A DNA stretch of 32,000 bases from NCBI GenBank assembly GCA_030149205.1, contig JASBSB010000001.1:660001-692000 (forward strand), written 5' to 3'. Both the position numbers and the translations under genes were made by a program. The stretch is from Candidatus Heimdallarchaeota archaeon. GTDB taxonomy: Archaea; Asgardarchaeota; Heimdallarchaeia; Heimdallarchaeales; Kariarchaeaceae. The notes under the pieces are model-generated. The model had not been told where the DNA came from and ran no database searches. It was given only the letters and a program-made list of their open reading frames with translations. Of the stretch, positions 309-17,626 are shown in pieces; position 1 is the stretch's first letter, and each line of letters opens with the position of its first letter.

Positions 309-896
309 TCAAATTCTATATCTTGCATGCAAGAATAAACGAAAAGTTTTGCTTTTGTTATTAACATATTTTACAAATCTTTGATACCCTGATAATGTAT
401 GAACAATACCTACGCTATTTGGGGCAATAGGTAGGGTGTAATACTGATCAGAACCCAAATAATAGGTGATCTGGCCTCCTGCAGTTACATCATCCCAACC
501 TTCAGTGAAATCAATAAAGACATCAAGTCCTTCCTCCAGATTTGCATCATCGTGCATTACAGTGTAATCTTTCCATTCATATTTCGAGACTGTAAGTTTG
601 TTTAATTTAAGCCCTTCGATTTCTGTGACTCCTTCAAGGAAAAGTAGTAATTCCTTAGATTCAAATAAATTTGTTAACCGTTCTGAAATTTTATCCTGTG
701 AAGAATATGAATACATTATGGGATTTATAACTTTTACAAAGCTTCCATCAAGAATCTCTTTCCTCAACTCTTGATACATCTCTGGTTTTAAAAATTCAAA
801 AAGAACAACACTCTGAAAAACATTGTCAGACTTGAATTGTTCAGTTAAGACAGGAAAGTTGTCCACTATTGTATATACATCATTCATCAGATTCAT
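309..896 (-). CDS. Ofd1/Tpa1/OGFOD1 C-terminal (non-catalytic DSBH) domain as a stand-alone protein
   Basis: DYTVMHDD...LDVFIDFTEGWDD..AGGQITY...TLPIAPNSVGIVH....RFVKYVN parallels the recalled human OGFOD1 C-domain (HYTLIHD...[22 protein letters not shown]...LTVNPESNSLALVYRD...KFVKHIN). Start could be the ATG at 887. Confidence 0.8.
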   Translation of the reverse strand: MNLMNDVYTIVDNFPVLTEQFKSDNVFQSVVLFEFLKPEMYQELRKEILDGSFVKVINPIMYSYSSQDKISERLTNLFESKELLLFLEGVTEIEGLKLNKLTVSKYEWKDYTVMHDDANLEEGLDVFIDFTEGWDDVTAGGQITYYLGSDQYYTLPIAPNSVGIVHTLSGYQRFVKYVNNKSKTFRLFLHARYRI

Positions 897-1503
897 ATAA
901 CCACCCTGTTAAACTGACTCTAAAGTATTCACCCACCACTTCCTCAACTTCATGGAATGAGGTCGGGGTAACTTCAAAAAACATCAACCGATTGTATCGC
1001 GGTATGATTTTCTTTGTAACTATAGTTGGATAAGAATGCTCAGACTCAAATAAATTTAAAGATCCTCCAATTTTTTCTTTTAGATCGGTTAAGTAAAAAA
1101 TGAATGCAATTTTCCTCTCTGGTAACTTGTCATCATGACATATAAGATAGTCCGTGTCTGAATAGATATTTCCCGTCACATCCACCTTTTTCCGACTTAG
1201 TTTACACGAAGTTATTGCTTCAATAAAACTTTGAAATTCTTCAGATAGTAAAAAAGAAACAAACTCTCGAAATATTGGATTAGAGCTTTCTGAAAGGTCA
1301 CTTGTTTGTATAAATTGGAAGAGGTCAGCCTCTTTCAGAAAAAATTCTTCATCCTCCAACGCAGAAATGACCTCGTCAAGTTTCTCTTCTATGAAGAACT
1401 CATCAATTGCTAGATGAGGAAATGGTGAATTTTGCTTGTACTCCTCCTGGTACTCATCAACCTTCAGTTTGTGTGATGGATTGAATAGATCATTCACAAA
1501 CAT
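880..1503 (-). CDS. 2OG-Fe(II) prolyl hydroxylase, OGFOD1/Tpa1 N-terminal catalytic domain
   Basis: PFPH, DLFQFIQTSDL, YLICHDD (HxD), RKIAFIFYL, GGSLNLF, PRYNRLMFFEVTPTSFHEVEEV (distal His) and RVSLTGW (2OG-binding Arg) follow the OGFOD1/Tpa1 motif order. Confidence 0.9.
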   Translation of the reverse strand: MFVNDLFNPSHKLKVDEYQEEYKQNSPFPHLAIDEFFIEEKLDEVISALEDEEFFLKEADLFQFIQTSDLSESSNPIFREFVSFLLSEEFQSFIEAITSCKLSRKKVDVTGNIYSDTDYLICHDDKLPERKIAFIFYLTDLKEKIGGSLNLFESEHSYPTIVTKKIIPRYNRLMFFEVTPTSFHEVEEVVGEYFRVSLTGWLYESDE

Positions 1504-1527: not shown

Positions 1528-2730
1528 TCACTGGTAAGAAACTAAAATATTACCGATTACCAAGATTAACACTAAAACTTGTACAGATATTGACAAGAAA
1601 TTTCTAAATCCTTCTTTCACATATTGCAGGAGAAAAGAAAGAATCTTCCCCCCATCTGTGAAAGTGAATGGTAGAAGATTGTAAACCCCTACAGCTAAAT
1701 TCAGATTGGAAAGCCAAATTAAACTAAATGTTACAAAATATGGAAGAAGTGGAAGGAACCCAAAATTTGGGTAGTAGTTGGAAACTTTAATTCCTAAAGT
1801 TGATTTTGTATTATCTCCCCCAGTTTTTACAAGAACATCTGAATTTAATAGGTGAATTAACAATGTTGTATTTGCAGGGGTATGGTTCAAAACCCTAGTT
1901 AAGTCATAAACTGATGTGATAGCAACTTTGCCATAACTCTGATTGAACTCATTTATTCTGCTTATTCCAACTATTATATCTCCAGTATGCAATGGCTGAT
2001 AGTTAGGACTATAAGTGCTAAATCCATCAACTACAACACCTCCTGGACTCCCATAGAGATATGGCACAAAAAAGAGTAGAATTAAGAACAACAAGCTGAA
2101 GACTATATTTAATGTTACACCTGAACTTAGAATAGATAGCTTTCTAATTGATTTTTCTTTATCATTCATCCTAAATTGCTCTGAATTGTTTTTTGATTCC
2201 TCTGAATTATTTCCATTCTCGATTATTATTGATCCATCTTCTTCAGATTCCTCACCTAAATCCACAAAAGCACCTATAAAAACCAAGAAAACTCCAATCC
2301 CAATCCTTTTCACTTGAACTCCCATTGCGGTTGCAGCCATTAAATGTCCAAATTCGTGTAAAAGCAACGCAATAAACACTGCTATCAATATTATCAACAC
2401 CTCAGGTATTGAATAAAGATATATCGGGGTTGCAACTATTAAACCTCCAGAGAATTGAAAAAGGTTCCAAGCTAAGACAAGTGGGACTGTGAAGAACAAG
2501 GTAAGAGTGATTACAACTGAAAGCTTGAGGTATGACCTTACCAGACCTTTTAGACCTTCAATTCTTTCTATGAGCTTAGAAGAATCACTAATCTGGTACT
2601 GATAAATTGCATAGAAATAGGAGACAAAAATACCAAATTGTCTAAAATCAATGAAATAGGCAGAGATAATTAAGACTACCCAAAGGGATACAATTATTCC
2701 AAAAAATATGAGTAGGCTATAAAGAGACAA
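1528..2730 (-). CDS. Site-2 protease (M50 family intramembrane zinc metalloprotease) with a PDZ-like insert
   Basis: HEFGH zinc motif, GAFVD, C-terminal NLLPxxxxDGG, multiple hydrophobic segments; soluble region resembling PDZ (GVVV...LHTGDIIVGI). Confidence 0.9.
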   Translation of the reverse strand: MSLYSLLIFFGIIVSLWVVLIISAYFIDFRQFGIFVSYFYAIYQYQISDSSKLIERIEGLKGLVRSYLKLSVVITLTLFFTVPLVLAWNLFQFSGGLIVATPIYLYSIPEVLIILIAVFIALLLHEFGHLMAATAMGVQVKRIGIGVFLVFIGAFVDLGEESEEDGSIIIENGNNSEESKNNSEQFRMNDKEKSIRKLSILSSGVTLNIVFSLLFLILLFFVPYLYGSPGGVVVDGFSTYSPNYQPLHTGDIIVGISRINEFNQSYGKVAITSVYDLTRVLNHTPANTTLLIHLLNSDVLVKTGGDNTKSTLGIKVSNYYPNFGFLPLLPYFVTFSLIWLSNLNLAVGVYNLLPFTFTDGGKILSFLLQYVKEGFRNFLSISVQVLVLILVIGNILVSYQ

Positions 2731-2763: not shown

Positions 2764-3132
2764 TCATCTAATTGCAGGAGAATTTTTTATTAGTATGTGA
2801 CTGTCCAAATACGCTAGAAAAGCAAAAATTGAAAGAAAGATCAAGTTTAAAATTAGCAATGAATTAGAGCCAAAGGGTAGGAAAATACTACTAAGGCTAT
2901 TCAGGTAATCATATCCATAAATTCTGAAGTTAATATTTCTGCTGATAAAATAAAAATTCATAAGGGATAGAACCAAGCCTATAAACCCTAGATTAAAGGA
3001 GAGAATGATGACGGTTTTTTTAACGAAGCCAATTTTTTCAAATTTCTCAGAGGTACTCAAGTACTGTTCTTCCAGCTCATCAACTATTTCTTCCTGTTCT
3101 TCCTCAGAGAACTTAGAATTTTCTTTCTCCAC
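2764..3132 (-). CDS. Hypothetical membrane protein: acidic N-terminus and two hydrophobic segments
   Basis: 122-aa ORF co-oriented 33 bp upstream of the site-2 protease gene; composition seen directly in the translation. Confidence 0.6.
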   Translation of the reverse strand: MEKENSKFSEEEQEEIVDELEEQYLSTSEKFEKIGFVKKTVIILSFNLGFIGLVLSLMNFYFISRNINFRIYGYDYLNSLSSIFLPFGSNSLLILNLIFLSIFAFLAYLDSHILIKNSPAIR

Positions 3133-3276: not shown

Positions 3277-4020
3277 ATGAAAAAGATTGATAAACTCCTT
3301 GAATTTCTCAACGATACTTCTAATGATCCATGGAAAAGAGGGGAGGTAGCTACTGAAATTGGTGACCTTGGAGATTCTAAGGCTTTAGCTCCGCTCATTA
3401 AACATCTTCACAATGATGAACATGATTTCGTAAGAAGAGATTGTGCAGAGGCATTAGGGTTGCTTGAGGATGATCGTGCTGTTGATGACTTAATTAAAGC
3501 AATGAAAGAAGACAGCTTTAGATATACCAGAAATGAAGCCGCTGAAGCACTGGGTAAACTTGAGGATACAAAGGCGATACCAGCACTCCTAGACTTTTTA
3601 CATAATGAGACATGGGAATTTGGCAGAGCTTCTGCTGCACTTTCGCTTGCTGAGATTGGAGATAAATCAGTTGTCACGGAAATTGTTGATCAAATTAAAA
3701 AAGAGGATCAGTTTTTCGTCAGAAGAGATATGTTAAAAGCTCTGCTAAAGTTAAAAGACCCGAGATCTACTTCTCTAACCATAGACCTGTTATTAAATGA
3801 TGAAAATTGGGAAGTTAGGTTACAAGCTGCAACAAACTTAGGATGGATACAGACAAAAATGGGAACCAAAGCCTTGGTCCAGGGACTCAAAAGAGACCCG
3901 CATATGTTTGTTAGGAAGGAATGTGAGAACTCACTAATTCACATAGCAGGTGATCATCGAATAAAATGGACGACTGCTGAGGCATTACTTGCGAATCTTG
4001 AGGAAATGGAGTTTGATTAA
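3277..4020 (+). CDS. HEAT-repeat (PBS lyase HEAT-like) protein
   Basis: About six repeats of the form D...vRxxAAxALGxLxDxxAvxxLixxL. Confidence 0.85.
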   Translation: MKKIDKLLEFLNDTSNDPWKRGEVATEIGDLGDSKALAPLIKHLHNDEHDFVRRDCAEALGLLEDDRAVDDLIKAMKEDSFRYTRNEAAEALGKLEDTKAIPALLDFLHNETWEFGRASAALSLAEIGDKSVVTEIVDQIKKEDQFFVRRDMLKALLKLKDPRSTSLTIDLLLNDENWEVRLQAATNLGWIQTKMGTKALVQGLKRDPHMFVRKECENSLIHIAGDHRIKWTTAEALLANLEEMEFD

Positions 4021-5506: not shown

Positions 5507-5971
5507 TTATTCTGCTTGCTCTGCAGTAAGGGTCACTGACCCACCAGCAGCTTCAACCTTTTTGACAGCCTTTACAGTTGCCTTTTGAACGGTTATGTTT
5601 AATTTGTGAGTGACTTCTCCCTGAGAGAGCAGCTTTTTGTACCCAAGTTTATCAAGGTCAACATTGAAAACGTCTCCATCTTTGGTTACTAATTGTTGTT
5701 TAACCAAACGTTCTACCGATGTATTCAGATGTGATACATTAATGGTTGGAGATTTTTTCAGATATTTTTGAGGTCTGATAAATCCGTATTTTCCACTAAA
5801 TTTCTTTCTGTTAAGCTTTGCTTCTTTGATTACACTGATCCAATTATGACTGAACCTTCCTGCGTTTCCAGCTCCACCAGACATTCCTTTGCCTTTGTGA
5901 TCCTTAACCACACCATATCCATGTGATCTTGAACCTCTCATTCTTCTGACTTTCTTTCTTTTTCTGATCAT
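5507..5971 (-). CDS. rpl15: 50S ribosomal protein uL15
   Basis: RKRKKVRRMRGSRSHGYG..K.H.G.G..GG.G.AG; AVKKVEAAGGSV; spc-operon position. Confidence 0.97.
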   Translation of the reverse strand: MIRKRKKVRRMRGSRSHGYGVVKDHKGKGMSGGAGNAGRFSHNWISVIKEAKLNRKKFSGKYGFIRPQKYLKKSPTINVSHLNTSVERLVKQQLVTKDGDVFNVDLDKLGYKKLLSQGEVTHKLNITVQKATVKAVKKVEAAGGSVTLTAEQAE

Positions 5972-5972
5972 T

Positions 5973-6452
5973 TTAAGCCATCCTCATGATTAACTTCGAC
6001 ATCTCTTCACCTCTGTATCCAAGGTCTCCATTTCTGGTTACTGGATTTTTAAGGGATTTAAATCCCTTCTTAGGGGGGGAGAGTCTGAAGACAGGTCTGA
6101 ATTCAGGAATATCAGTTAGTTTTGCATTTCCCTCCAATAAAGCCTTTGCAAAATCGCTGATCGATTTGAATTCAGTATTCTTTTTTATGTAAGCATCGGT
6201 AATTTTCTTTCTACCGGTTAGTTCACCTCGCTTTTTGATGAGGTGGATCAGGGTTTTTTTGTCAACTGATCCCCATGTTACCCTATCCTTAGCCTTATCT
6301 AGCATTCCTTCCAAAGTGGGATTCTTCTGAAATACCACAGCGTGATTCACCTTATGAAGCCTAAGAAGCGAAAGTGTCTTTTTGACTGAATGTTCAGTAT
6401 CAGCTTGTCCTCTCAGCCTAACTATAACAATCATTTCATTATTTTCACTCAT
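5973..6452 (-). CDS. rpl30: 50S ribosomal protein uL30 (archaeal long form)
   Basis: VIVRLRG, TLSLLRLHKVNH, FRLSPPKKGF. Start placed at the ATG at 6452, 2 nt after the uS5 stop. Confidence 0.96.
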   Translation of the reverse strand: MSENNEMIVIVRLRGQADTEHSVKKTLSLLRLHKVNHAVVFQKNPTLEGMLDKAKDRVTWGSVDKKTLIHLIKKRGELTGRKKITDAYIKKNTEFKSISDFAKALLEGNAKLTDIPEFRPVFRLSPPKKGFKSLKNPVTRNGDLGYRGEEMSKLIMRMA

Positions 6453-6454
6453 GA

Positions 6455-7078
6455 TTACCACTCCGTTGGGGGAAGAACATCATAGGTTCTTTTCAAGGCA
6501 TCAAATGTTGCCAAAGCATAATTGCTTGTTGTTGATGTGGATCCTGATGTGCGGCTCCAAATATCATTGATTCCAGCAAAAGAAAGAACTGTTTGTCCAA
6601 CTTCACCTGCTGCAAGTCCAAGACCTCTAGGTGCAGGTATAAGTTGAACTTTAACTGAACCAGTTGATCCAGATGTCTTGAATGGGATGGAGTGTTTACC
6701 ACCACAGTTACATTCCCAAGAACCACAGCCTCTACGGATGGGTGCAATGTTTAATTTGGCGTTAAGAATCGACTTTCGGATAGCTGGCCCAGCTTCTCTC
6801 AGCTTAGCCTCACCGACACCGACATATCCACCTCTGTTGCCAACCACTGCTGTAGCTCTAAATTGCCTTTTTCTTCCAGCTCTGCTCATCTTTTGCACGA
6901 GTTTTATCTGAAGTAACTGATCCTCCAGATTTGGAAGTAGAAGATCCACGATTTGCCACTCTCGGATAATTAATCCTTTTTGAAAAATCTCATCAATAGA
7001 AGTGACCTTTCCTTCGAGTACATCTCTTCCAAGTCTTGTTTTTGGTTCCCAATCGTCCATTACACTGGTACTACTCAT
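6455..7078 (-). CDS. rps5: 30S ribosomal protein uS5
   Basis: WEPKTRLGR.V..G, RRGCGSWEC, LIPAPRGLGL.AG, NYALATFDAL. Confidence 0.98.
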   Translation of the reverse strand: MSSTSVMDDWEPKTRLGRDVLEGKVTSIDEIFQKGLIIREWQIVDLLLPNLEDQLLQIKLVQKMSRAGRKRQFRATAVVGNRGGYVGVGEAKLREAGPAIRKSILNAKLNIAPIRRGCGSWECNCGGKHSIPFKTSGSTGSVKVQLIPAPRGLGLAAGEVGQTVLSFAGINDIWSRTSGSTSTTSNYALATFDALKRTYDVLPPTEW

Positions 7079-7082
7079 AATC

Positions 7083-7670
7083 TTAGAACTCCTTGTCTAT
7101 TGCCTTTACAGTTTTGTCAAAGAAGCTCGCAATTTTCTCTGGGGCCTGTTTTGCCTTCAAATAACCTGCATATCTTTGTTTGTAAAGTTTATTGTCTTCT
7201 TTTTTCAAGGCTTCACTGTATTTTGCAATGTGTGAACCTTTGATTATTTCTTCATCTGGGAAAATATCCTCACCGGCGGGAATCTCTATTCCTGCGTCAA
7301 TCACACCTTTCAGGCATGCGAAGAGCCTCGTTTTGTTTTGAGGGTTCTGTACTCCTAAATCGAGAATAGCAAAATCAATACCGCTCTTAAGTGCCTTTTT
7401 CCCTGCTAAATAACCTGTTAGGTAAGCTGCGGGGATATTTCCACCATTGATATTCCAACCAAACTGAGAAAGATTCATTGAACTAGCGGATGTTAAAGTT
7501 TTGTCTCCATCAGCAAGTGATTCAACCATTTGAACTCTAATGTTTTTGGTTGATTTTCTTATTACTAATCTGATACTCCTTGATTTTAGAAGCTCTTTTC
7601 TTCTGTAAAAATTGGTCTTTCCCTCTCTTCTTCTTCGAAGAGCAACTCTATATCTAGGTCCATTTGCCAT
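7083..7670 (-). CDS. rpl18: 50S ribosomal protein uL18
   Basis: MANGPRYRVALRRRREGKTN, RLVIRKS, AAYLTGYLAG, LKGVIDAG; GGTGA Shine-Dalgarno upstream. Confidence 0.98.
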   Translation of the reverse strand: MANGPRYRVALRRRREGKTNFYRRKELLKSRSIRLVIRKSTKNIRVQMVESLADGDKTLTSASSMNLSQFGWNINGGNIPAAYLTGYLAGKKALKSGIDFAILDLGVQNPQNKTRLFACLKGVIDAGIEIPAGEDIFPDEEIIKGSHIAKYSEALKKEDNKLYKQRYAGYLKAKQAPEKIASFFDKTVKAIDKEF

Positions 7671-7675
7671 TTATA

Positions 7676-8155
7676 TCACCTGTTGTAGGGAGGGATTTTT
7701 TTCTCTGCAAGACCTCGCTCAGAAATGACACTTGAAAGATATCTGACACTTCTGAATAGATTCCCTTTTGCTTGCAGGTATAATGTTCTGTAGGTATTAG
7801 GAGTGATGTACCCCTCATCTCTAAGTTTCTTCAGGTACTTTCTTTGAGCCCTGATTTTATTGATCCATACGGTCTTTTGATTGCTTCTCGCATTCAAACT
7901 CCCTTTCCTGGATCCTAAGCCTTTACGTTGACCACGTTGACGTTTTGGGTGATTTTTCCTCGCGTTTCTTCTACTGGTGCCAATTACCTTTCTTTTTGAA
8001 ATCACACCAGAAGAGATCAATTTTTCTATGTCTGCACGAGTTAAAGCCAAAGCTACATCATTTATCTTATGATGTTCTGGATCGATGTGAACACGATTCA
8101 CTCCAACCTTCAATATGCTGGATGCCATCTTACGCTGAGCCTTTAAATTGGTCAT
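7676..8155 (-). CDS. rpl19e: 50S ribosomal protein eL19
   Basis: NLKAQRKMASSILKVGVNRV.IDP, RKGLGSRKG, WINKIRAQR, YRTLYLQAKG. Confidence 0.98.
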   Translation of the reverse strand: MTNLKAQRKMASSILKVGVNRVHIDPEHHKINDVALALTRADIEKLISSGVISKRKVIGTSRRNARKNHPKRQRGQRKGLGSRKGSLNARSNQKTVWINKIRAQRKYLKKLRDEGYITPNTYRTLYLQAKGNLFRSVRYLSSVISERGLAEKKIPPYNR

Positions 8156-8685
8156 TCGGTCTCCTCCTTAAATTCTTCTTCAGCCTCTTCTTCAAGAGGT
8201 TCCTCTTCTTCAAGAGCGTCTTCCAATAGTTCATCCTCCTCATCTTCAAACTCGAAGTCATCCTCTGAGAATTCTTCATCCGTGAATTCTGATTCATGAC
8301 GCCTTACAATTGGATTGAGGATGTGAATTTCCATCTCTTCTGCTCTTTCAATGATCAAGGTTCTCTTTCTGCTACCGACAGTCCTTCCAATCTGTGCGAC
8401 TTGTGTGTCGGGATCAACTTTTTGTAAATCATCCAGGTTGTGCACTCGCACAATCTCGAAACCTGATGGGTGAAGCCCTCTAACCAGTTTGGGATTTCTA
8501 TAGCCCACATTTGGAGATTTACGTTTTCCCTTCAGCTTGTGACGCATCTTACTGTCAATACCACGAGGTCTTCTCCAAGTGGTTTGAATACGTTTTAACC
8601 TGTGCCATTCGGCTCTTAGAAACTTTGGTCTTCTCTTGTTTTTCTTAGACCTAAGTCGCAATAGTCTATCTTTCTTTTCACTCAT
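8152..8685 (-). CDS. rpl32e: 50S ribosomal protein eL32 with a long acidic C-terminal extension
   Basis: RPKFLRAEWH, WRRPRGIDSKMR, P.VGYRNP...RGLHPSG; final ~45 residues are E/D-rich; AAGGAG Shine-Dalgarno upstream. Confidence 0.97.
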   Translation of the reverse strand: MSEKKDRLLRLRSKKNKRRPKFLRAEWHRLKRIQTTWRRPRGIDSKMRHKLKGKRKSPNVGYRNPKLVRGLHPSGFEIVRVHNLDDLQKVDPDTQVAQIGRTVGSRKRTLIIERAEEMEIHILNPIVRRHESEFTDEEFSEDDFEFEDEEDELLEDALEEEEPLEEEAEEEFKEETE

Positions 8686-9391: not shown

Positions 9392-10042
9392 ATAGATCAC
9401 AACACAATACTAACAGCAGTAAACAAGATGAAAGAAGTCTCAAAGGAAAGAAAATTTGTCGAAAGTGTTGATATCTCTATAGGTCTGAAAGATGTAAACT
9501 TAAAGGATCCAAGTAAGAGGTTTAGAGCAGAAATTGTTCTACCTCATAAGCCAAACAAAGCAGCAAGAATTGCAGTTGTCGGAACCACAGATATCTTAGA
9601 ACGAGTGAAAGAACTCAATGTTCAACAGATGTTGAGTGATACCGATGTTGAAAACATTGCAAAAGACCCCAAGGCTGCTAAAGGCTTTGTCAAAGACATA
9701 GATTATGTCCTTGCGATCCCTCAGATGATGGCGATAGTTGGTAAAAATCTTGGACGATTTTTAGGGCCAGTTGGTAAAACACCCAGTGTGTTACCACCTA
9801 ACGCTGAGTTTGAAAGTTTCTTAGACCGATATCAAAGAATCTGCAAATTACGACTTAGGCAGAATCCTGTGATTCATGCAAGAGTTGCAACCAGAGATAT
9901 GGAAAACAACGACATAGCTGAAAATGTGGAAGTGGTGTTAAGAGAGCTTGAAAAAAGACTCGATAATGGCCCACACAATATTAAACATGTCCATATCAAA
10001 ACCACAATGGGTCCAGCTGTCGAGATAGGAGGCACAAACTGA
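9392..10042 (+). CDS. rpl1: 50S ribosomal protein uL1 (start re-assigned to ATA 9392; the ORF track uses ATG 9428)
   Basis: RKFVESVDISIGLK, EIVLPH, LGRFLGP.GK.P, IKTTMGPAV. The 12 codons before ATG 9428 encode the conserved N-terminal helix. Confidence 0.97.
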   Translation: MDHNTILTAVNKMKEVSKERKFVESVDISIGLKDVNLKDPSKRFRAEIVLPHKPNKAARIAVVGTTDILERVKELNVQQMLSDTDVENIAKDPKAAKGFVKDIDYVLAIPQMMAIVGKNLGRFLGPVGKTPSVLPPNAEFESFLDRYQRICKLRLRQNPVIHARVATRDMENNDIAENVEVVLRELEKRLDNGPHNIKHVHIKTTMGPAVEIGGTN

Positions 10043-10971
10043 TGAATCCAAGACGAATCAGGAAACAAGAGGCCTTAGCTAAATTGACAGATTTAATCAC
10101 GTCTCACAAAAACATAGGTGTGATTACTATGCAACCAATGAGTGGTTCATCAATCCATCAAATACGTCGAGACCTGAGAGAGAGCAATGCCAAATTGGTG
10201 GTGAGCAGAAATACCATCATGAGAATGGCTCTTGAACAAACGAAAAAGAAAAAGAAAAATGTGGAAGCTCTGGAACAATATGTGACAGGAAATGCTGCAT
10301 TTCTCTTTTCTGATGAAAACGTGTTCCAAGTAGCAAAATACCTTGATTCTAACAAGGTACCTGCGCCTGCTCGCCCAGGACAAATTGCTCCAATAGATGT
10401 GTTAGTTCCAAAAATGAATACTGGAGTTCCACCTGGAACGTTCATTGGAGAACTTAACGCAGTTGGACTTCCAACCAGAATTGAGAGAGGTACAATTGCT
10501 ATACCCGACGATACAGTAGTCGTTAAGGCTGGAGAAAAAGTCAGTAAAACATTGGCTAATATCCTTAGTAGACTGGGTATAACCCCATTCAAAGTTGGCC
10601 TTCAACTTGACGCAGCCGTATCTGATGGTATCCTTATAGAAAAGGATGGATTATTAACAGATTATCCTGGTATGCTGGCAACAGCACATCATCAGGCAGT
10701 TAATTTAGCCGCTAGAATTGGATATGTCACAGAAGAGACTGCTAATGCAGTTATTGGTTCTGCACAATCTGAGGCACTTGCTCTCCTGAGAGTGATTGTC
10801 AGTGCAGACCCCAACGCTGTGCCTGAAGAACTTAGGACTTTAGCTCAATCCGCAGCTCAAGTTCAAACAACACCCTCTGAAACTGATTCAGCTGATACAG
10901 CAGAAGATGAGGAAGAGGAAGAAGAAGAGGTGGACGAAGCAGACCTTGGTCTCGGTTCACTGTTCGGATAA
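10042..10971 (+). CDS. rplP0: 50S ribosomal protein uL10 (archaeal P0)
   Basis: VSRNT.M..AL, PAPARPGQIAP.DV.VP..NTG.PPG, acidic tail ending GLGSLFG; TGATG overlap with rpl1. Confidence 0.98.
   Translation: MNPRRIRKQEALAKLTDLITSHKNIGVITMQPMSGSSIHQIRRDLRESNAKLVVSRNTIMRMALEQTKKKKKNVEALEQYVTGNAAFLFSDENVFQVAKYLDSNKVPAPARPGQIAPIDVLVPKMNTGVPPGTFIGELNAVGLPTRIERGTIAIPDDTVVVKAGEKVSKTLANILSRLGITPFKVGLQLDAAVSDGILIEKDGLLTDYPGMLATAHHQAVNLAARIGYVTEETANAVIGSAQSEALALLRVIVSADPNAVPEELRTLAQSAAQVQTTPSETDSADTAEDEEEEEEEVDEADLGLGSLFG
10909..10971 (+). repeat. P0 C-terminal 20 codons; identical in protein to the aP1 tail at 11229-11291
   Basis: Both encode [20 protein letters not shown] and differ at many synonymous positions. 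Confidence 0.9.
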
Positions 10972-11345: not shown

Positions 11346-12350
11346 ATGGATTATTCGATCTTAACTATTGGTTCACATTCAGCCCTTCAGATATTAAAAG
11401 GTGCAAGGGATGAAGGATTCAACACCATAGCAATAGTCAAAAAAGGGACGGAAAGACCATACAGGAGCTTTGGGGTTGCAGACCAAATTATTACTTTGGA
11501 TGATTGGAGAGACTTTGAAGATAAGCTGGATGAAATAGATTCTGGAAACCCGATTTTAATTCCCCATGGTTCTCTAATTTCATATCTCGGAATAGAAAGA
11601 ATAAAAAATTTAAAAGGTTTGTATTTTGGTGACAAAGAGATCCTTAAATGGGAAGCTGATCGAAATCTCGAGATGGAATGGTTCAAGAGTGCTGGGATAA
11701 GGACTCCTATAACCTTTGAAACTCCTGATGAGGTTGATCGTCCAGTTATTGTCAAATTCTTTGGGGCTGGAGGAGGAGATGGATATATATTTGCAAAAAA
11801 CCATGATGATCTGGAAAAGAAATTACAGGACATTCCGACCTCTGCAAGATATTTGATCCAGGAGTATCTAATAGGAACACCCTTCTATATTCATTATTTT
11901 TATTCCCCGTTAAATCAGGAACTTGAAGTTATGAGCTTTGACAAGAGGTACGAGACCTCTGTGGATGCCCTTGGGAGAATCCCCGCAGCAACTCAGATTG
12001 AGCTTGACATAAAGCCAAACTATTTGGTTATAGGAAATCAACCACTGGTGATAAGAGAATCATATTTATCCAAAGTTTTCGAATTGGGAGATAAAATGGT
12101 GGAATCTGGAAAAAATATAAGCTCTAAAGGGCTGATTGGACCTTTTTGCCTTGAGACAGTTATCACAGAAAAAGGAGAAATCGTCCCATTTGAAATTTCA
12201 GCACGAATCGTCGCGGGAACGAACCCCTTTATCAATGGCTCACCCTACACATGGTTGAGGTATAACGAACCGATGTCAACTGGAAGAAGAATTGCCAGAG
12301 AGATTAAAAATGCAATTGCTGATAATAAATTGGATGAAATTACCACTTGA
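11346..12350 (+). CDS. purP: 5-formaminoimidazole-4-carboxamide ribonucleotide synthetase (ATP-grasp)
   Basis: TIGSHSALQILKGARDEGF, IPHGS, IVKF.GA.GG.GY, D.RYE, GN.P.V.RES, GPFCLE, FEISARIVAGTN. Confidence 0.93.
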   Translation: MDYSILTIGSHSALQILKGARDEGFNTIAIVKKGTERPYRSFGVADQIITLDDWRDFEDKLDEIDSGNPILIPHGSLISYLGIERIKNLKGLYFGDKEILKWEADRNLEMEWFKSAGIRTPITFETPDEVDRPVIVKFFGAGGGDGYIFAKNHDDLEKKLQDIPTSARYLIQEYLIGTPFYIHYFYSPLNQELEVMSFDKRYETSVDALGRIPAATQIELDIKPNYLVIGNQPLVIRESYLSKVFELGDKMVESGKNISSKGLIGPFCLETVITEKGEIVPFEISARIVAGTNPFINGSPYTWLRYNEPMSTGRRIAREIKNAIADNKLDEITT

Positions 12351-12362
12351 GTTGAGAAATTT

Positions 12363-13493
12363 ATGACTGAGTTAAAAGAAAAAATTGACAGAGTACTTGA
12401 ATCGTATGATCTTGATGACTTAACTATTGGTGTTCTTGGAGGTCACTCAGCGTTGGATGTCTGTCGTGGAGCTAAAATAAAGGGTTTGAAAACACTCGTG
12501 GTTGCGATGAGAGGAAGAGAGAAAACGTACACTAAATATTACAAATCATCTCAAAAACATGGTGTGGTTGATGAAGTGATTGTACTTGATCATTTTTCGG
12601 ACATTGTCAGCGAAGAGGTTCAAGAACAGCTAAGAAAGAAAAACACGATATTTATTCACAACAGATACTTTTGGGTCTATTGTAATTTTGAGGAAATTGA
12701 GAGCAAATTTATTGTCCCTATTTATGGATCTAGAAAGATGCTGAAGCTAGAAGAAAGACATTTACAACCTAATCAATATGATCTACTTCGTCAGGCAAAT
12801 ATTCGCATTCCCAAAATATTCAAGAACCCAGAAGATATTAATTCTCTGGCAATCGTGAAAGCAAACGAGGCATTGAGAGGTTACGAAAGGGCATTCTTTT
12901 ATGTTACTAACTATGATGACTATCACCGGGTTTCAAAACAGCTTATAGAGAAAGGTCAAATTTCAGAAGAAGGACTAAAAAGCGCTACAATTGAAGAATT
13001 TGTTCTTGGGGCTCAAGTAAATTTTAACTTCTTTTATTCCCCCCTGGATGAATCTATAGATTTTATGGGTACAGACACCAGAAGACAAACTAACCTAGAT
13101 GGCATTCTTAGACTACCTGCAGACCAGCAATTAAAGATTTTAGAAAAGGTAAAGGTAAAAATGATTGAAAATGGACATCAAGCAGTTACTATTAAGGAGA
13201 GTCTCATTGAAAAGGCATTTTCAATGGCAGAAAAGTTTGTGCTGTCTTCAAAAAAATTTAGTCCTCCAGGAATAATTGGCCCATTTGGACTTCAAGGAGC
13301 AGTAACAGCCGAAGAGGGAAAAGAGGAGATTGTGATTTTTGACGCTTCGCTCAGAATTCCTGGTTCACCTGGAACAATCTTTACACCTTACACAGGTTAC
13401 AAGTATTTAGAACACCTCAGTTATGGAGATCGAATTGCAATGGAAATAGTGGAAGCAGTTAAACAAAATAAACTGAAAGAAATTTGTACCTAA
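12363..13493 (+). CDS. purP: PurP-like paralogue (ATP-grasp)
   Basis: IGVLGGHSALDV, GYERAFF, DTRRQTNLDG, GIIGPF.LQ, RIPGSPG, G.RIAMEI. Confidence 0.85.
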   Translation: MTELKEKIDRVLESYDLDDLTIGVLGGHSALDVCRGAKIKGLKTLVVAMRGREKTYTKYYKSSQKHGVVDEVIVLDHFSDIVSEEVQEQLRKKNTIFIHNRYFWVYCNFEEIESKFIVPIYGSRKMLKLEERHLQPNQYDLLRQANIRIPKIFKNPEDINSLAIVKANEALRGYERAFFYVTNYDDYHRVSKQLIEKGQISEEGLKSATIEEFVLGAQVNFNFFYSPLDESIDFMGTDTRRQTNLDGILRLPADQQLKILEKVKVKMIENGHQAVTIKESLIEKAFSMAEKFVLSSKKFSPPGIIGPFGLQGAVTAEEGKEEIVIFDASLRIPGSPGTIFTPYTGYKYLEHLSYGDRIAMEIVEAVKQNKLKEICT

Positions 13494-14434: not shown

Positions 14435-15430
14435 TTAAGAACTAAAATGTGTCCATCCTCTAAATTCTAAAATTTCACCGCTATCTAATGAAACAGAATG
14501 AGCTTCAGAAACTGCACCAATTTGGATGGCGTTATATTTTGCCAATATTTTCAGTTCTAGATCTGTAAGGTGTTGATCCGCAGCAAAAATTATTCCTAGT
14601 TCTTCTCCACCGTAATAAACAGCCTCATCAATGATCATCTGGTATTCCTGTTGAGAAAACAGGTTGTGAGAAATATTGATTCCTATTTTTCTCTTGTCAA
14701 GAACAATCCCTCTTTCAGTTCCTTTGATCAGTTGATACAGCGATTTAACCAAACCATCAGAGCAATCTATTGAAGATTTAATTTTATGACCCAATGAACC
14801 GAGTACCTCTCTAAATTCAGGGTAAGTATTGGGATACTCATAGTCTGTCACTAACTTTGAAGAGTAGGTAGTTTCTGGAAGTTTCCCAAGTAAAAGTTGT
14901 AATGCTAAGGCAGTTTCACCAAACTTCGGACCAATCCAATAAAGATGGTCGCCAACTAAAAGTGTATTGCTAATTCTTGGTACGGGGCGATCGAGTCTGT
15001 TATCAAGGGTTCCCACCACTACAACATCGACTACCACATCATTAGCTTGGTTAAGGTCCCCCCCAAGAAATTTTAATTCATATTTATCACATGCCTTCCT
15101 AACCCCTTTGATGATCTCTAAAGAGTCTTCTATAAAATAGGTATTAGGGAGGCTTAATGATAGAAGAATCGTCTGAGGAATCCCTCCTTTCACAATTATG
15201 TCACTAATTGCATTTATTACAGCCCTGTACCCAGCAGGTTTTGGCTTTAAAGCAATAGGGACATCCGTTGAAAACACCAAACCATCAATATTTATTAGCT
15301 GTATAGAATCACTGGGAGGAATTGCCACAGCATCGTCCTCTTTACCAAGGTATTCTGGAGTATCTAAATAGCTCTGAATTAAAGTGATCCACTCATCTTC
15401 ACCGACTTGTGCTAAGACTCTCTTTCCCAA
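14435..15430 (-). CDS. thiL: Thiamine-monophosphate kinase (TTG start)
   Basis: GEDEWI, DDAVAI, NAISDI..KGG.P, LGGD, SSIDCSDGL, GGEE. Confidence 0.85.
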   Translation of the reverse strand: MGKRVLAQVGEDEWITLIQSYLDTPEYLGKEDDAVAIPPSDSIQLINIDGLVFSTDVPIALKPKPAGYRAVINAISDIIVKGGIPQTILLSLSLPNTYFIEDSLEIIKGVRKACDKYELKFLGGDLNQANDVVVDVVVVGTLDNRLDRPVPRISNTLLVGDHLYWIGPKFGETALALQLLLGKLPETTYSSKLVTDYEYPNTYPEFREVLGSLGHKIKSSIDCSDGLVKSLYQLIKGTERGIVLDKRKIGINISHNLFSQQEYQMIIDEAVYYGGEELGIIFAADQHLTDLELKILAKYNAIQIGAVSEAHSVSLDSGEILEFRGWTHFSS

Positions 15431-16395
15431 TATAACTCTTGATTCATAACAACGCTTCTTATCTTAAAGACTTGTGTTGAACCTTCAATAATTTCATAAC
15501 TCTGCGCCAGCATTTCTCCCAAGCCAATCAATTCTCCTTTTGCAGTTTTTGCTGCAACAAGGGAACCAGGTACAAGGTTAACTGAGTAACCTAAGACCCC
15601 ATTTGATCCTAGGGGGATACCATGGCATACATTTTTGACGGCTGAGTTTTTTACAATGATCTCTGGAAGATGTGGTACGGCTACCTCAACTGGCAAAATC
15701 AATTTACGGAGCTCACTTTCATCATTTGACTCCTTATAATCCATGTATGCATCAAATAATTGATGCAAGGTTACACAGGTGTCTTCCGTAAACACACCTG
15801 TCTTAATTCTTCTAAGTTCTGACATATGTGATAGACAGCCATTTGCTCGACCCATATCTTCACATAAAGTACGAATGTATGTGCCTGCCTCACAACTGAC
15901 CTCAAACAAAAGCTCATTTTCCTTGGTTTCAAGAATTTCTAAGGAATAGATCTCCCTTTTTCTTAGTCTTCTTTTTACATTTGACTCCAAGGGTGGAAAC
16001 TGATAAATTTCCCCTAAGAAATTTTCTCTGACTGACTCCCAACTACCTAAAGGTTTTGATGTTGATTTAAGCACTGCTATATAGGATTTGGGAAGTAGAT
16101 GAAGTGTGTGCAATACTTTGGTTGATCTTAACAACCCGATCGGTAAAACTCCAGAGACATGAGGGTCTAAAGTTCCAGCATGACCTGCTTTTGAAATTCC
16201 TAAAATTTTCTTAACTGTGGCAACCACATCGTGAGAGGTTGGTCCGTAAGGTTTGTCTAAATTGATAAACCCTGTTTCGATGAGGGCTTCTATAGGTCTC
16301 TCAAATGGAGTAAAGCCAATATCTGCAGTTTTATCTGCTTGAAACTCATCATCATCTATAATTTTAGTGTTTAGCTTAAATTCAATATGGCTCAT
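15412..16395 (-). CDS. cbf5: H/ACA RNA-guided pseudouridine synthase Cbf5
   Basis: INLDKP.GPTSH, GHAGTLDP (catalytic Asp), YQFPP.ES.VKR.LR.R, CEAGTYIRTLC, ELRR, C-terminal PUA domain. Confidence 0.96.
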   Translation of the reverse strand: MSHIEFKLNTKIIDDDEFQADKTADIGFTPFERPIEALIETGFINLDKPYGPTSHDVVATVKKILGISKAGHAGTLDPHVSGVLPIGLLRSTKVLHTLHLLPKSYIAVLKSTSKPLGSWESVRENFLGEIYQFPPLESNVKRRLRKREIYSLEILETKENELLFEVSCEAGTYIRTLCEDMGRANGCLSHMSELRRIKTGVFTEDTCVTLHQLFDAYMDYKESNDESELRKLILPVEVAVPHLPEIIVKNSAVKNVCHGIPLGSNGVLGYSVNLVPGSLVAAKTAKGELIGLGEMLAQSYEIIEGSTQVFKIRSVVMNQELYWERES

Positions 16396-16857
16396 TTAAC
16401 GCTCTTCTAAGGCAATTTCAACGTGTGTAAGTACATCATTCTTAGCAGAAGAAGACCTAAAAGCTCGGTAGAACATTCTTTTGGTTAATCTACCTTTTTG
16501 AGCTGCTGCGTGAATGACCTGAAGTTTGTCAACCTCTAATCCTTTGAATTCTGCATTTTTTTCAGCTGATTCTAATAAATCTAACATAATTTTTGAGACT
16601 TTAACAGGATATCTTCCAACATCCCAACCAATAAGGTCAGAGCGATGTCCACCTTTCTTATGGTGTCTTTTGAAAGGAACAGATCTTTTCATTGCAATCA
16701 CATCCTCTAAGTACTGTTTTGCATCATCCAACATCATTCCCTTTATCGTGTTACAAACTTCTCTTGCATGTTTATGAGACATGCTGACCTCTCGTGCTGA
16801 GGCAAGTGCTGTTTTATCTGGGTCTAACCCAATTACTGAATACTTGAATCTTGGCAT
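16396..16857 (-). CDS. rpl22: 50S ribosomal protein uL22
   Basis: KHAREVC..IKGM, VPFKRH, GRYPVK, NAEFKGL, HVEIALEE. Confidence 0.98.
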   Translation of the reverse strand: MPRFKYSVIGLDPDKTALASAREVSMSHKHAREVCNTIKGMMLDDAKQYLEDVIAMKRSVPFKRHHKKGGHRSDLIGWDVGRYPVKVSKIMLDLLESAEKNAEFKGLEVDKLQVIHAAAQKGRLTKRMFYRAFRSSSAKNDVLTHVEIALEER

Positions 16858-16867
16858 AATTTTTCAC

Positions 16868-17281
16868 CTATTTCAGAGGTACGAACATGGATGACCGTGT
16901 TGCACCAATACCTGGAGCAGAATGTTTCACAACTTTACGGGCATGTGAGAACTCTCCAAAGTAATTACCTATCTTATCAAATGTCACCTCAATAGGGGAA
17001 AAGGCTTGTCCATTATAAACCTCAACTGTTAGTCCCACGAATTCTGGAAGTATAACAAAATCTCGGATGTGAGTCTTGACAACAATCTGCCTTCCTTGAT
17101 CCATGGCTTGTTTTGCCTTTTTAAGTTTGTTCAAGAGCTTTTTCCTCTCATGATTCCAGTAATCTGGACGTGTAAGACTCCTTCTCTGCCTGGCAGGGAA
17201 GAACTCAACCACCTCATCAAGTGAGAGCTCCTGTAACTCACGTAGAGTCTTACCTCGGTATGTTGTTAATCTTTTACTCAT
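16868..17281 (-). CDS. rps19: 30S ribosomal protein uS19
   Basis: YRGKTL.EL, FPARQRRSL, VKTH.RD, YNG..F, GEFS, HSAPGIGATRSSMFVPLK. The alternative start at 17293 cannot be excluded. Confidence 0.98.
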   Translation of the reverse strand: MSKRLTTYRGKTLRELQELSLDEVVEFFPARQRRSLTRPDYWNHERKKLLNKLKKAKQAMDQGRQIVVKTHIRDFVILPEFVGLTVEVYNGQAFSPIEVTFDKIGNYFGEFSHARKVVKHSAPGIGATRSSMFVPLK

Positions 17282-17626
17282 AGTTACATGCAAATGTAAA
17301 ACTTACGTTATTTTAAATTAACTAAAGAGTTCTAGTTAACTGATGCTCAAGTCTTAAGATTTCTTTGAGATATTAATAAGGTACACTTGGCTATCGCCTC
17401 TACGTTTAAGAGTTTCTTTGATTGTGAGTGTAGAAGAGTTGATGAGAATAGAAGATAAAGAATTTCAATTCTCATTTCAACACTAAAATTTTGTTGTAAT
17501 ATGACAATCATAATTGAAACCTTTGAAACCATTTGTTTAATTTGCGAAAACAACTTGAATGGTAAATTACGAGTTTGGGAAGAACTAATAGAATCCTTTT
17601 TGAATGAGTATGTTAGATTACAATTA

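Follow-up and report, generated by a model that had tools for sequence, protein, structure and literature searches.

In this study, a two-gene locus of the archaeon Candidatus Heimdallarchaeota (assembly GCA_030149205.1) was characterised within a window of 32,000 nucleotides, namely positions 660,001 to 692,000 of contig JASBSB010000001.1, and all coordinates given below refer to this whole stretch. Computational analysis revealed that the two overlapping genes almost certainly represent a real split member of the OGFOD1/Tpa1/Ofd1 family of prolyl hydroxylases, the N- and C-terminal halves of the eukaryotic enzymes being encoded here by separate genes (hereafter N-half and C-half). OGFOD1/Tpa1 uses O2 to hydroxylate the conserved decoding-centre proline of ribosomal protein uS12 (RPS23): human OGFOD1 (PDB 4NHX/4NHY) is the trans-3-prolyl hydroxylase of Pro62 of uS12/RPS23, Saccharomyces cerevisiae Tpa1 (3KT1/3MGU/4NHK) is the 3,4-dihydroxylase of Rps23 Pro64, and Schizosaccharomyces pombe Ofd1 is both a prolyl dihydroxylase and the oxygen sensor for Sre1. 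The joint explanation that we favour, and hold to be on balance probable, is that the archaeal locus encodes a two-subunit prolyl hydroxylase of this family, with uS12 as its most likely target, and that the gene pair was acquired laterally. The features of the locus are as follows.

880..1503, minus strand: open reading frame (ORF) of the N-half gene, encoding a predicted catalytic 2-oxoglutarate (2OG)/Fe(II) double-stranded beta-helix (DSBH) protein of 207 amino acids (aa)
309..896, minus strand: ORF of the C-half gene, encoding a predicted non-catalytic DSBH protein of 195 aa
1129..1137, minus strand: sequence of the HxD Fe(II)-binding motif H123-D124-D125 (ICHDD), codons CAT GAT GAC
952..954, minus strand: codon of the distal Fe(II)-binding His, H184 (SFHEV)
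919..921, minus strand: codon of R195 (RVSLTGW), the predicted 2OG C5-carboxylate-binding Arg
880..906, minus strand: junction of the two genes, with putative translational coupling
901-906, minus strand: Shine-Dalgarno-like GGGTGG, identical with Gly-Trp codons of the N-half
894-896, minus strand: start ATG of the C-half, with an alternative ATG at 885-887
880-882, minus strand: stop TGA of the N-half

Concerning the N-half, profile, PDB and fold comparisons all favour the OGFOD1/Tpa1/Ofd1 group over generic bacterial 2OG oxygenases, which bears out the eukaryote-like character proposed in a first-pass annotation of this DNA. The protein matches PF13661 (E 1e-27) as well as PF13640, and a phmmer search against solved structures in the PDB retrieved human OGFOD1 (4NHX, E 4.4e-29) and Tpa1 (E 5.9e-21); the first match outside this group was far weaker (E 0.0035). 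Its AlphaFold2 model (predicted local distance difference test, pLDDT, 90.6) superposes on the N-terminal domain (NTD) of Tpa1 (residues 24-250) with a VIA Z of 26.3 and a root-mean-square deviation (rmsd) of 2.0 A over 206 residues at 31% identity, and on OGFOD1 residues 24-242 with a VIA Z of 25.1, again at 31% identity; the best VIA Z obtained with other prolyl hydroxylases was 19.6. Residues H123, D125, H184 and R195 are invariant across 53 prokaryotic and 5 eukaryotic relatives, save for one gap in the R195 column. The upstream gene does retain the complete catalytic set with which it had been credited, and on this basis the N-half is predicted to be an active Fe(II)/2OG/O2-dependent oxygenase.

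The C-half scores 44.1 bits on the Pfam model PF10637 (Ofd1_CTDD), for which the gathering cut-off is 27, and aligns with OGFOD1 residues 462-541 and with the C-terminal domain (CTD) of Ofd1. OGFOD1 was also the top Foldseek match of its AlphaFold2 model (pLDDT 96.9; template modelling score 0.89), which superposes on OGFOD1 residues 267-542 with a VIA Z of 23.7 and an rmsd of 1.8 A over 191 residues (24% identity) and on the isolated Ofd1 CTD (6E0T) with a VIA Z of 20.6 over 188 residues (23% identity). None of 58 C-halves has His at the distal-His position, which is occupied by Val, Ile, Phe or other residues; the first His survives in only 26 of the 53 prokaryotic ones, and the residue aligned with the ligand Asp varies. 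On these grounds the C-half is predicted to be non-catalytic throughout the family. In the window's C-half, V175 stands at the place of the distal His, with H115 and D117 retained. It had been suggested that the downstream gene lost both the distal His and the Arg, of which the former holds and the latter finds no support in the alignment: R186 aligns at +11 from the distal-His column, the spacing observed for R195 in the N-half, and in this alignment 31 of the 53 prokaryotic C-halves have Arg in the corresponding column.

N-half and C-half are themselves paralogous (hhalign probability 99.2%, E 7e-20), and profiles of the archaeal halves find the fused proteins of eukaryotes with full-length matches in the same N-to-C order. 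The boundaries of OGFOD1 were placed by Horita et al. at residues 24-238 for the NTD, 239-269 for the linker and 270-542 for the CTD (PMC4396695). As the N-half model superposes up to OGFOD1 residue 242 and the C-half model from residue 267 onwards, the archaeal gene boundary replaces the eukaryotic interdomain linker, and ORFs, sequence and predicted fold agree with the initial reading of two overlapping genes as the N- and C-terminal OGFOD1/Tpa1/Ofd1 halves in order. The archaeal pair thus resembles human OGFOD1 in its domain order (N, then C), in the identical residues of the HxD...H...R set in the N-half and in the lack of a distal His in both C-half and CTD, but differs in comprising two polypeptides, in lacking linker 239-269 and an acidic insert of approximately 60 residues in the CTD (195 aa versus 273) and in its archaeal host. 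Tpa1, the top structural match of the N-half, shares the tandem DSBH arrangement with an inactive second domain, but is a single chain of approximately 640 aa with a bigger CTD, while the likeness to S. pombe Ofd1 lies in the fold of the C-half (6E0T) and in the Pfam family named after that protein. Members of the OGFOD1/Tpa1/Ofd1 subfamily carry both domains and the linker in a single polypeptide; the archaeal locus has two ORFs, the first of which is closed by the stop codon at 880-882.

The split is a conserved natural state. In a genome scan covering one genome per prokaryotic species, 54 loci were found, in 51 of which the C gene is the next gene after the N gene on the same strand, the exceptions being two loci at contig ends (L009 and L043) and one locus without a C-half (L013). 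Among the nearest relatives of the N-half, every contig, including several metagenome contigs, has an overlapping C-half gene directly downstream. In the window, the ORFs overlap by 17 nt in different frames if the C-half starts at ATG 894-896; with the second ATG (885-887), which the database gene call takes, the overlap is 8 nt and the product 192 aa. The 3' end of the N-half gene reads ACA GGG TGG TTA TAT GAA TCT GAT GAA TGA. Overlaps across related loci amount to 8 nt (20 loci), 11 nt (11), 4 nt (8) or 14 nt (6), and the frame offset from N to C is +1 in 43 loci, +2 in 12 and 0 in 1. At most of 56 loci the C-half ATG follows right behind the invariant Gly-Trp codons in the layout 'GGGTGGTTYYATG', an arrangement that probably serves the translational coupling of the two halves, and GGGTGG may act as a ribosome-binding site, in which case a conserved protein motif would at the same time direct ribosomes to the downstream gene. 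Programmed frameshifting into a fused protein was also considered and found unlikely, since the frame offsets vary by locus and a separate start codon is present in every C gene.

Fused forms were found only among eukaryotes wherever an organism was named. An exhaustive search with the C-half (E up to 1e-3) yielded 415 representatives at 50% identity; the absence of relatives in a near-length word-index search with the same query reflects a limit of sensitivity and not rarity. Of the best 150 of the 415, 145 are stand-alone proteins of approximately 100-230 aa, and the remaining five span 445-610 aa and are all fused; the long forms named by organism are all eukaryotic (Pythium, Basidiobolus and Balamuthia), the fourth is named by function and the fifth is unnamed. 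Long relatives of the N-half that bear a name are all from insects. No fused prokaryotic form was seen among the N-half relatives or among the best 150 of the 415 C-half relatives.

The distribution of the pair was assessed with a C-half profile in sampled genomes which are incomplete metagenome-assembled genomes (MAGs), so that absence here means not found in the genomes searched. Of 400 Asgard genomes sampled, only 6 matched, every one belonging to the family of the source genome and to one of two genera, g1 (3 of 3, plus the source genome itself) and g4 (2 of 2); the 389 sampled Asgard genomes of other families gave no match. In the DPANN phylum containing locus L014, 75 of 401 sampled genomes gave a match; DPANN carriers include MAGs of Woese-, Pace- and Nanoarchaeia, and rare bacteria of the candidate phyla radiation (CPR) also carry the pair. 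The Heimdall-group locus shares with these DPANN/CPR split pairs both genes, their order and the overlapping junction (N-half identity 36-55%, C-half approximately 25-34%), and is set apart by its host, an aerobic Asgard archaeon with a 3.3-Mb genome, and by its place in a small Asgard-only subclade (support 100/99).

Several carriers merit separate comment. Two bacterial MAGs (L030 and L041), one of them a CPR Buchananbacterium, have a split pair nested among DPANN copies, a pattern suggestive of exchange between ultrasmall archaea and bacteria that occur together. A number of pair-bearing MAGs are titled 'uncultured Methanosarcinales archaeon' (L010, L012, L015, L020, L023, L024, L036, L042, L044, L048 and L056-L059), with genomes of 1.0-1.4 Mb and copies that group with DPANN, and a MAG titled 'Methanobacteriota archaeon' (GCA_003696825; L002/L006) has the same protein and gene order as a contig (G055) from the Asgard genus of the source genome; the titles of both sets of records look unreliable.

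A concatenated N+C maximum-likelihood tree was inferred from 58 taxa and 396 columns under LG+C20+F+G4, in which the eukaryotes are thinly sampled with five sequences only (Stramenopila, Fungi, Amoebozoa and two unnamed metagenomic ones). The eukaryotic sequences form one clade (100/100) outside all prokaryotic sequences. The six Asgard sequences, including that of the source genome, form the subclade mentioned above, which lies within a DPANN-dominated clade of 30 prokaryotic sequences that excludes the eukaryotes (95/83). Recent transfer from eukaryotes followed by fission, which was considered as an origin, is disfavoured by the position of the eukaryotic clade, and the archaeal genes are, as judged from this topology, not recent imports from crown eukaryotes. 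In a second tree, in which the N and C paralogues root each other, the paralogues separate with a support of 100 and both eukaryotes and prokaryotes occur on either side, and the N/C duplication therefore predates the divergence of the eukaryotic and prokaryotic forms. Here the eukaryotes branch off close to the base of each subtree, a position that is weakly supported (54-63) and could reflect long-branch attraction, and at no point do they group with the Asgard sequences.

Based on the scarcity of carriers among Asgard (6 of 400) relative to DPANN genomes (75 of 401) and on the nesting of the Asgard clade within DPANN, lateral acquisition is more likely than descent towards eukaryotes, and we lean towards a lateral origin of the pair within Asgard from a DPANN-type donor. 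The pair belongs to a large DPANN-centred archaeal family and was most likely taken up laterally by an aerobic family of the Heimdall group. The first-pass annotation had suggested that the pair may be a pre-fusion form in an archaeon: the two-gene state is indeed conserved, but an Asgard-to-eukaryote ancestry along these lines is weakened by the restriction to one family and by the nesting in DPANN.

Concerning the oxygen supply and substrate of the enzyme, the source genome (12 contigs, 93.5% complete) contains three genes for heme-copper oxidase subunit I (COX1) together with cytochrome bd, and COX1 is present in 11 of the 12 genomes of the family. Because of these genes the host is predicted to respire oxygen. 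The oxygenase pair is the sole PF13640-type locus in the genome. The uS12 of the source genome holds the motif KQPNSALRK with Pro65, in a target loop that is nearly identical to the eukaryotic one.

In the mechanism that we propose, the overlapping junction would couple translation and thereby provide equimolar amounts of N- and C-half, and the C-half, a catalytically dead paralogous partner, would pack on the N-half in the manner of the two domains of the single-chain eukaryotic enzyme. In OGFOD1, NTD and CTD pack tightly via minor beta-sheets (PMC4396695), and by analogy we consider it likely that the two archaeal halves form a heterodimer, with the strict pairing of their genes and the coupled junction as indirect support. 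This dimer would hydroxylate Pro65 of uS12 in a reaction dependent on O2, Fe(II) and 2OG, the analogy with the eukaryotic enzymes giving uS12 about an even chance of being the target. In the presence of oxygen, hydroxylation of Pro65 may thus adjust decoding or termination, a role modelled on the effect of the yeast hydroxylase on these processes (PMC4543633, PMC8153317). The partners of Tpa1, namely Ett1, eRF1/eRF3 and Pab1, are eukaryotic (PMC8153317).

A number of observations weigh against the combined explanation of a laterally acquired, two-subunit uS12 hydroxylase. With respect to substrate, archaeal uS12 proteins in general have the proline loop, which therefore does not set carriers of the pair apart from non-carriers, and no conserved neighbour ties the pair to the ribosome across the 54 loci. 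With respect to the reaction, DPANN carriers are mostly considered anaerobes, which is odd for an O2-dependent enzyme. With respect to the obligate pairing of the halves, the locus L013, on a Woesearchaeota contig, has an intact N-half and no recognisable C-half within 2.6 kb downstream, and is the sole such case among loci uncut by a contig end. With respect to origin, the lateral reading rests on modest branch support, and enforcing an Asgard+eukaryote clade lowers the log-likelihood by 5.7 units, a loss too small for rejection by the approximately unbiased (AU) test (p 0.21).

The alternative that survives best, which we nevertheless judge unlikely, is that the same two-subunit oxygenase acts on another substrate, such as an elongation or release factor, some other protein, free proline or a small molecule. 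It draws on the lack of a conserved link to uS12 or ribosomal genes across the loci, on the activity of single-domain relatives of the fold towards EF-Tu, HIF or small molecules, and on the match of the N-half to the YhhC peptide-oxygenase model of NCBIfam, although the latter, with 39.8 bits for a cut-off of 150, was rejected as an identity and reflects superfamily resemblance only. Pseudomonas PPHD, which acts on EF-Tu (4IW3/4J25), illustrates the point, as it shares the DSBH fold and cofactors and modifies a translation protein; yet it is a far weaker match (Z 18.6-19.1, E above 0.2) and has neither an inactive second domain nor a partner gene. Against a different substrate, both sequence and fold are clearly nearest to the uS12 hydroxylases, the family-specific second domain is present, and the uS12 loop of the source genome differs little from its eukaryotic counterpart.

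A second alternative is that the pair represents a vertically inherited, pre-fusion ancestor of eukaryotic OGFOD1 which was kept in the Heimdall-group lineage that gave rise to eukaryotes. The host is an aerobic Heimdall-group Asgard archaeon, the two units are fused collinearly, N before C, in the eukaryotic proteins, the eukaryotes are monophyletic and are not the source of the archaeal genes, and the AU test leaves room for an Asgard+eukaryote clade, all of which would fit such an ancestry. This is, however, rendered quite improbable by the confinement of the pair to two genera of one family among the 400 Asgard genomes, by the best tree, which places the Asgard clade within DPANN and apart from the eukaryotes, and by the absence of any eukaryote-Asgard grouping in the paralogue-rooted tree.

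The surroundings of the pair in the window gave rise to a third alternative. The following genes lie upstream of the oxygenase genes, and aconitase-family subunits lie downstream of the pair.

1528-2730, minus strand: M50 site-2 protease gene, 24 nt upstream of the N-half
2764-3132, minus strand: gene of a small membrane protein (122 aa, two-helix hairpin), upstream of the M50 gene
3277-4020, plus strand: gene of a 247-aa protein made up entirely of HEAT/PBS-lyase repeats, diverging from the membrane-protein/M50/oxygenase string

The 24-nt spacing suggests that the M50 gene and the oxygenase pair share one transcript, and it could be envisaged that pair and protease form an oxygen-sensing proteolytic module, an echo of the fungal Ofd1-Sre1/SREBP system: the M50 gene is on the same strand, the small membrane protein precedes it, and S. 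pombe Ofd1 acts in oxygen sensing. Such a module is very unlikely and was rejected, as the M50, hairpin and HEAT genes are absent beside the pair in all other Asgard loci (approximately 6-8.6 kb examined at each). Across the 54 loci no neighbour family recurs beyond close relatives, and M50 is not among recurrent neighbours, so that the protease beside the pair does not show the conserved gene association that would be expected for an Ofd1-Nro1-Sre1-type link to a membrane-bound transcription factor and its protease. Sre1 and Nro1 are moreover fungal proteins, and we know of no partners of this type outside fungi.

The remainder of the window is rich in ribosomal-protein genes, the clusters of which are unusually broken up for archaea. 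A functional tie between the oxygenase pair and these genes was considered and is put down to coincidence, given that no ribosomal neighbour recurs across loci. The features concerned, together with a further gene pair, are the following.

5507-8685: uL15, uL30, uS5, uL18, eL19 and eL32 genes
9428-10971: uL1 and uL10 genes
15412-17293: uS19 and uL22 genes, with Cbf5 (TruB/DKCLD/PUA) and an AIRS-domain gene directly after them in place of uS3
11346-12350 and 12363-13493, plus strand: two tandem paralogous DUF1246/DUF1297 ATP-grasp genes (PurP-like)

Finally, the notion that the split is an artefact, that is, an assembly or sequencing frameshift in one fused gene, is hardly credible: although the frames overlap and one indel could in principle join them, the same two-gene layout and junction recur in the 51 independent loci and on several metagenome contigs, the second gene invariably brings an ATG of its own at a conserved position, with offsets that vary between loci, and the relatives searched yielded no fused prokaryotic form.

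The OGFOD1 subfamily has been described as 'found only in eukaryotes', prokaryotic prolyl hydroxylases being single-domain proteins (PMC4396695), which agrees with the earlier remark that this system is usually regarded as eukaryotic, and according to a 2015 review, 2OG oxygenases commonly modify proteins in eukaryotes and in a wide range of prokaryotes, 'but not archaea' (PMC4543633). The carriers identified here are Asgard and DPANN archaea, and our literature search found no paper in which Asgard or Heimdall archaea are connected with OGFOD1 or with prolyl hydroxylases. To this the source genome adds an Asgard host, an aerobic background, and a distribution and a phylogeny that speak against plain vertical descent.

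It may tentatively be proposed, as a scenario that we hold to be somewhat doubtful, that the ribosomes of this aerobic Heimdall-group archaeon and of many DPANN archaea carry a uS12 hydroxyproline introduced by such a pair and that eukaryotic OGFOD1/Tpa1 arose by fusion of an archaeal pair of this kind; if true, O2-dependent tuning of decoding would predate eukaryotes. The tandem-DSBH architecture is in any event not restricted to eukaryotes and may be older than they are, and the locus offers a natural two-piece system for probing the role of the inactive domain, while O2-dependent hydroxylation of the ribosome in archaea becomes directly testable. For studies of eukaryogenesis the pair also counsels caution: in this instance, exchange with DPANN archaea accounts better for a 'eukaryote-like' Asgard gene than direct descent does.

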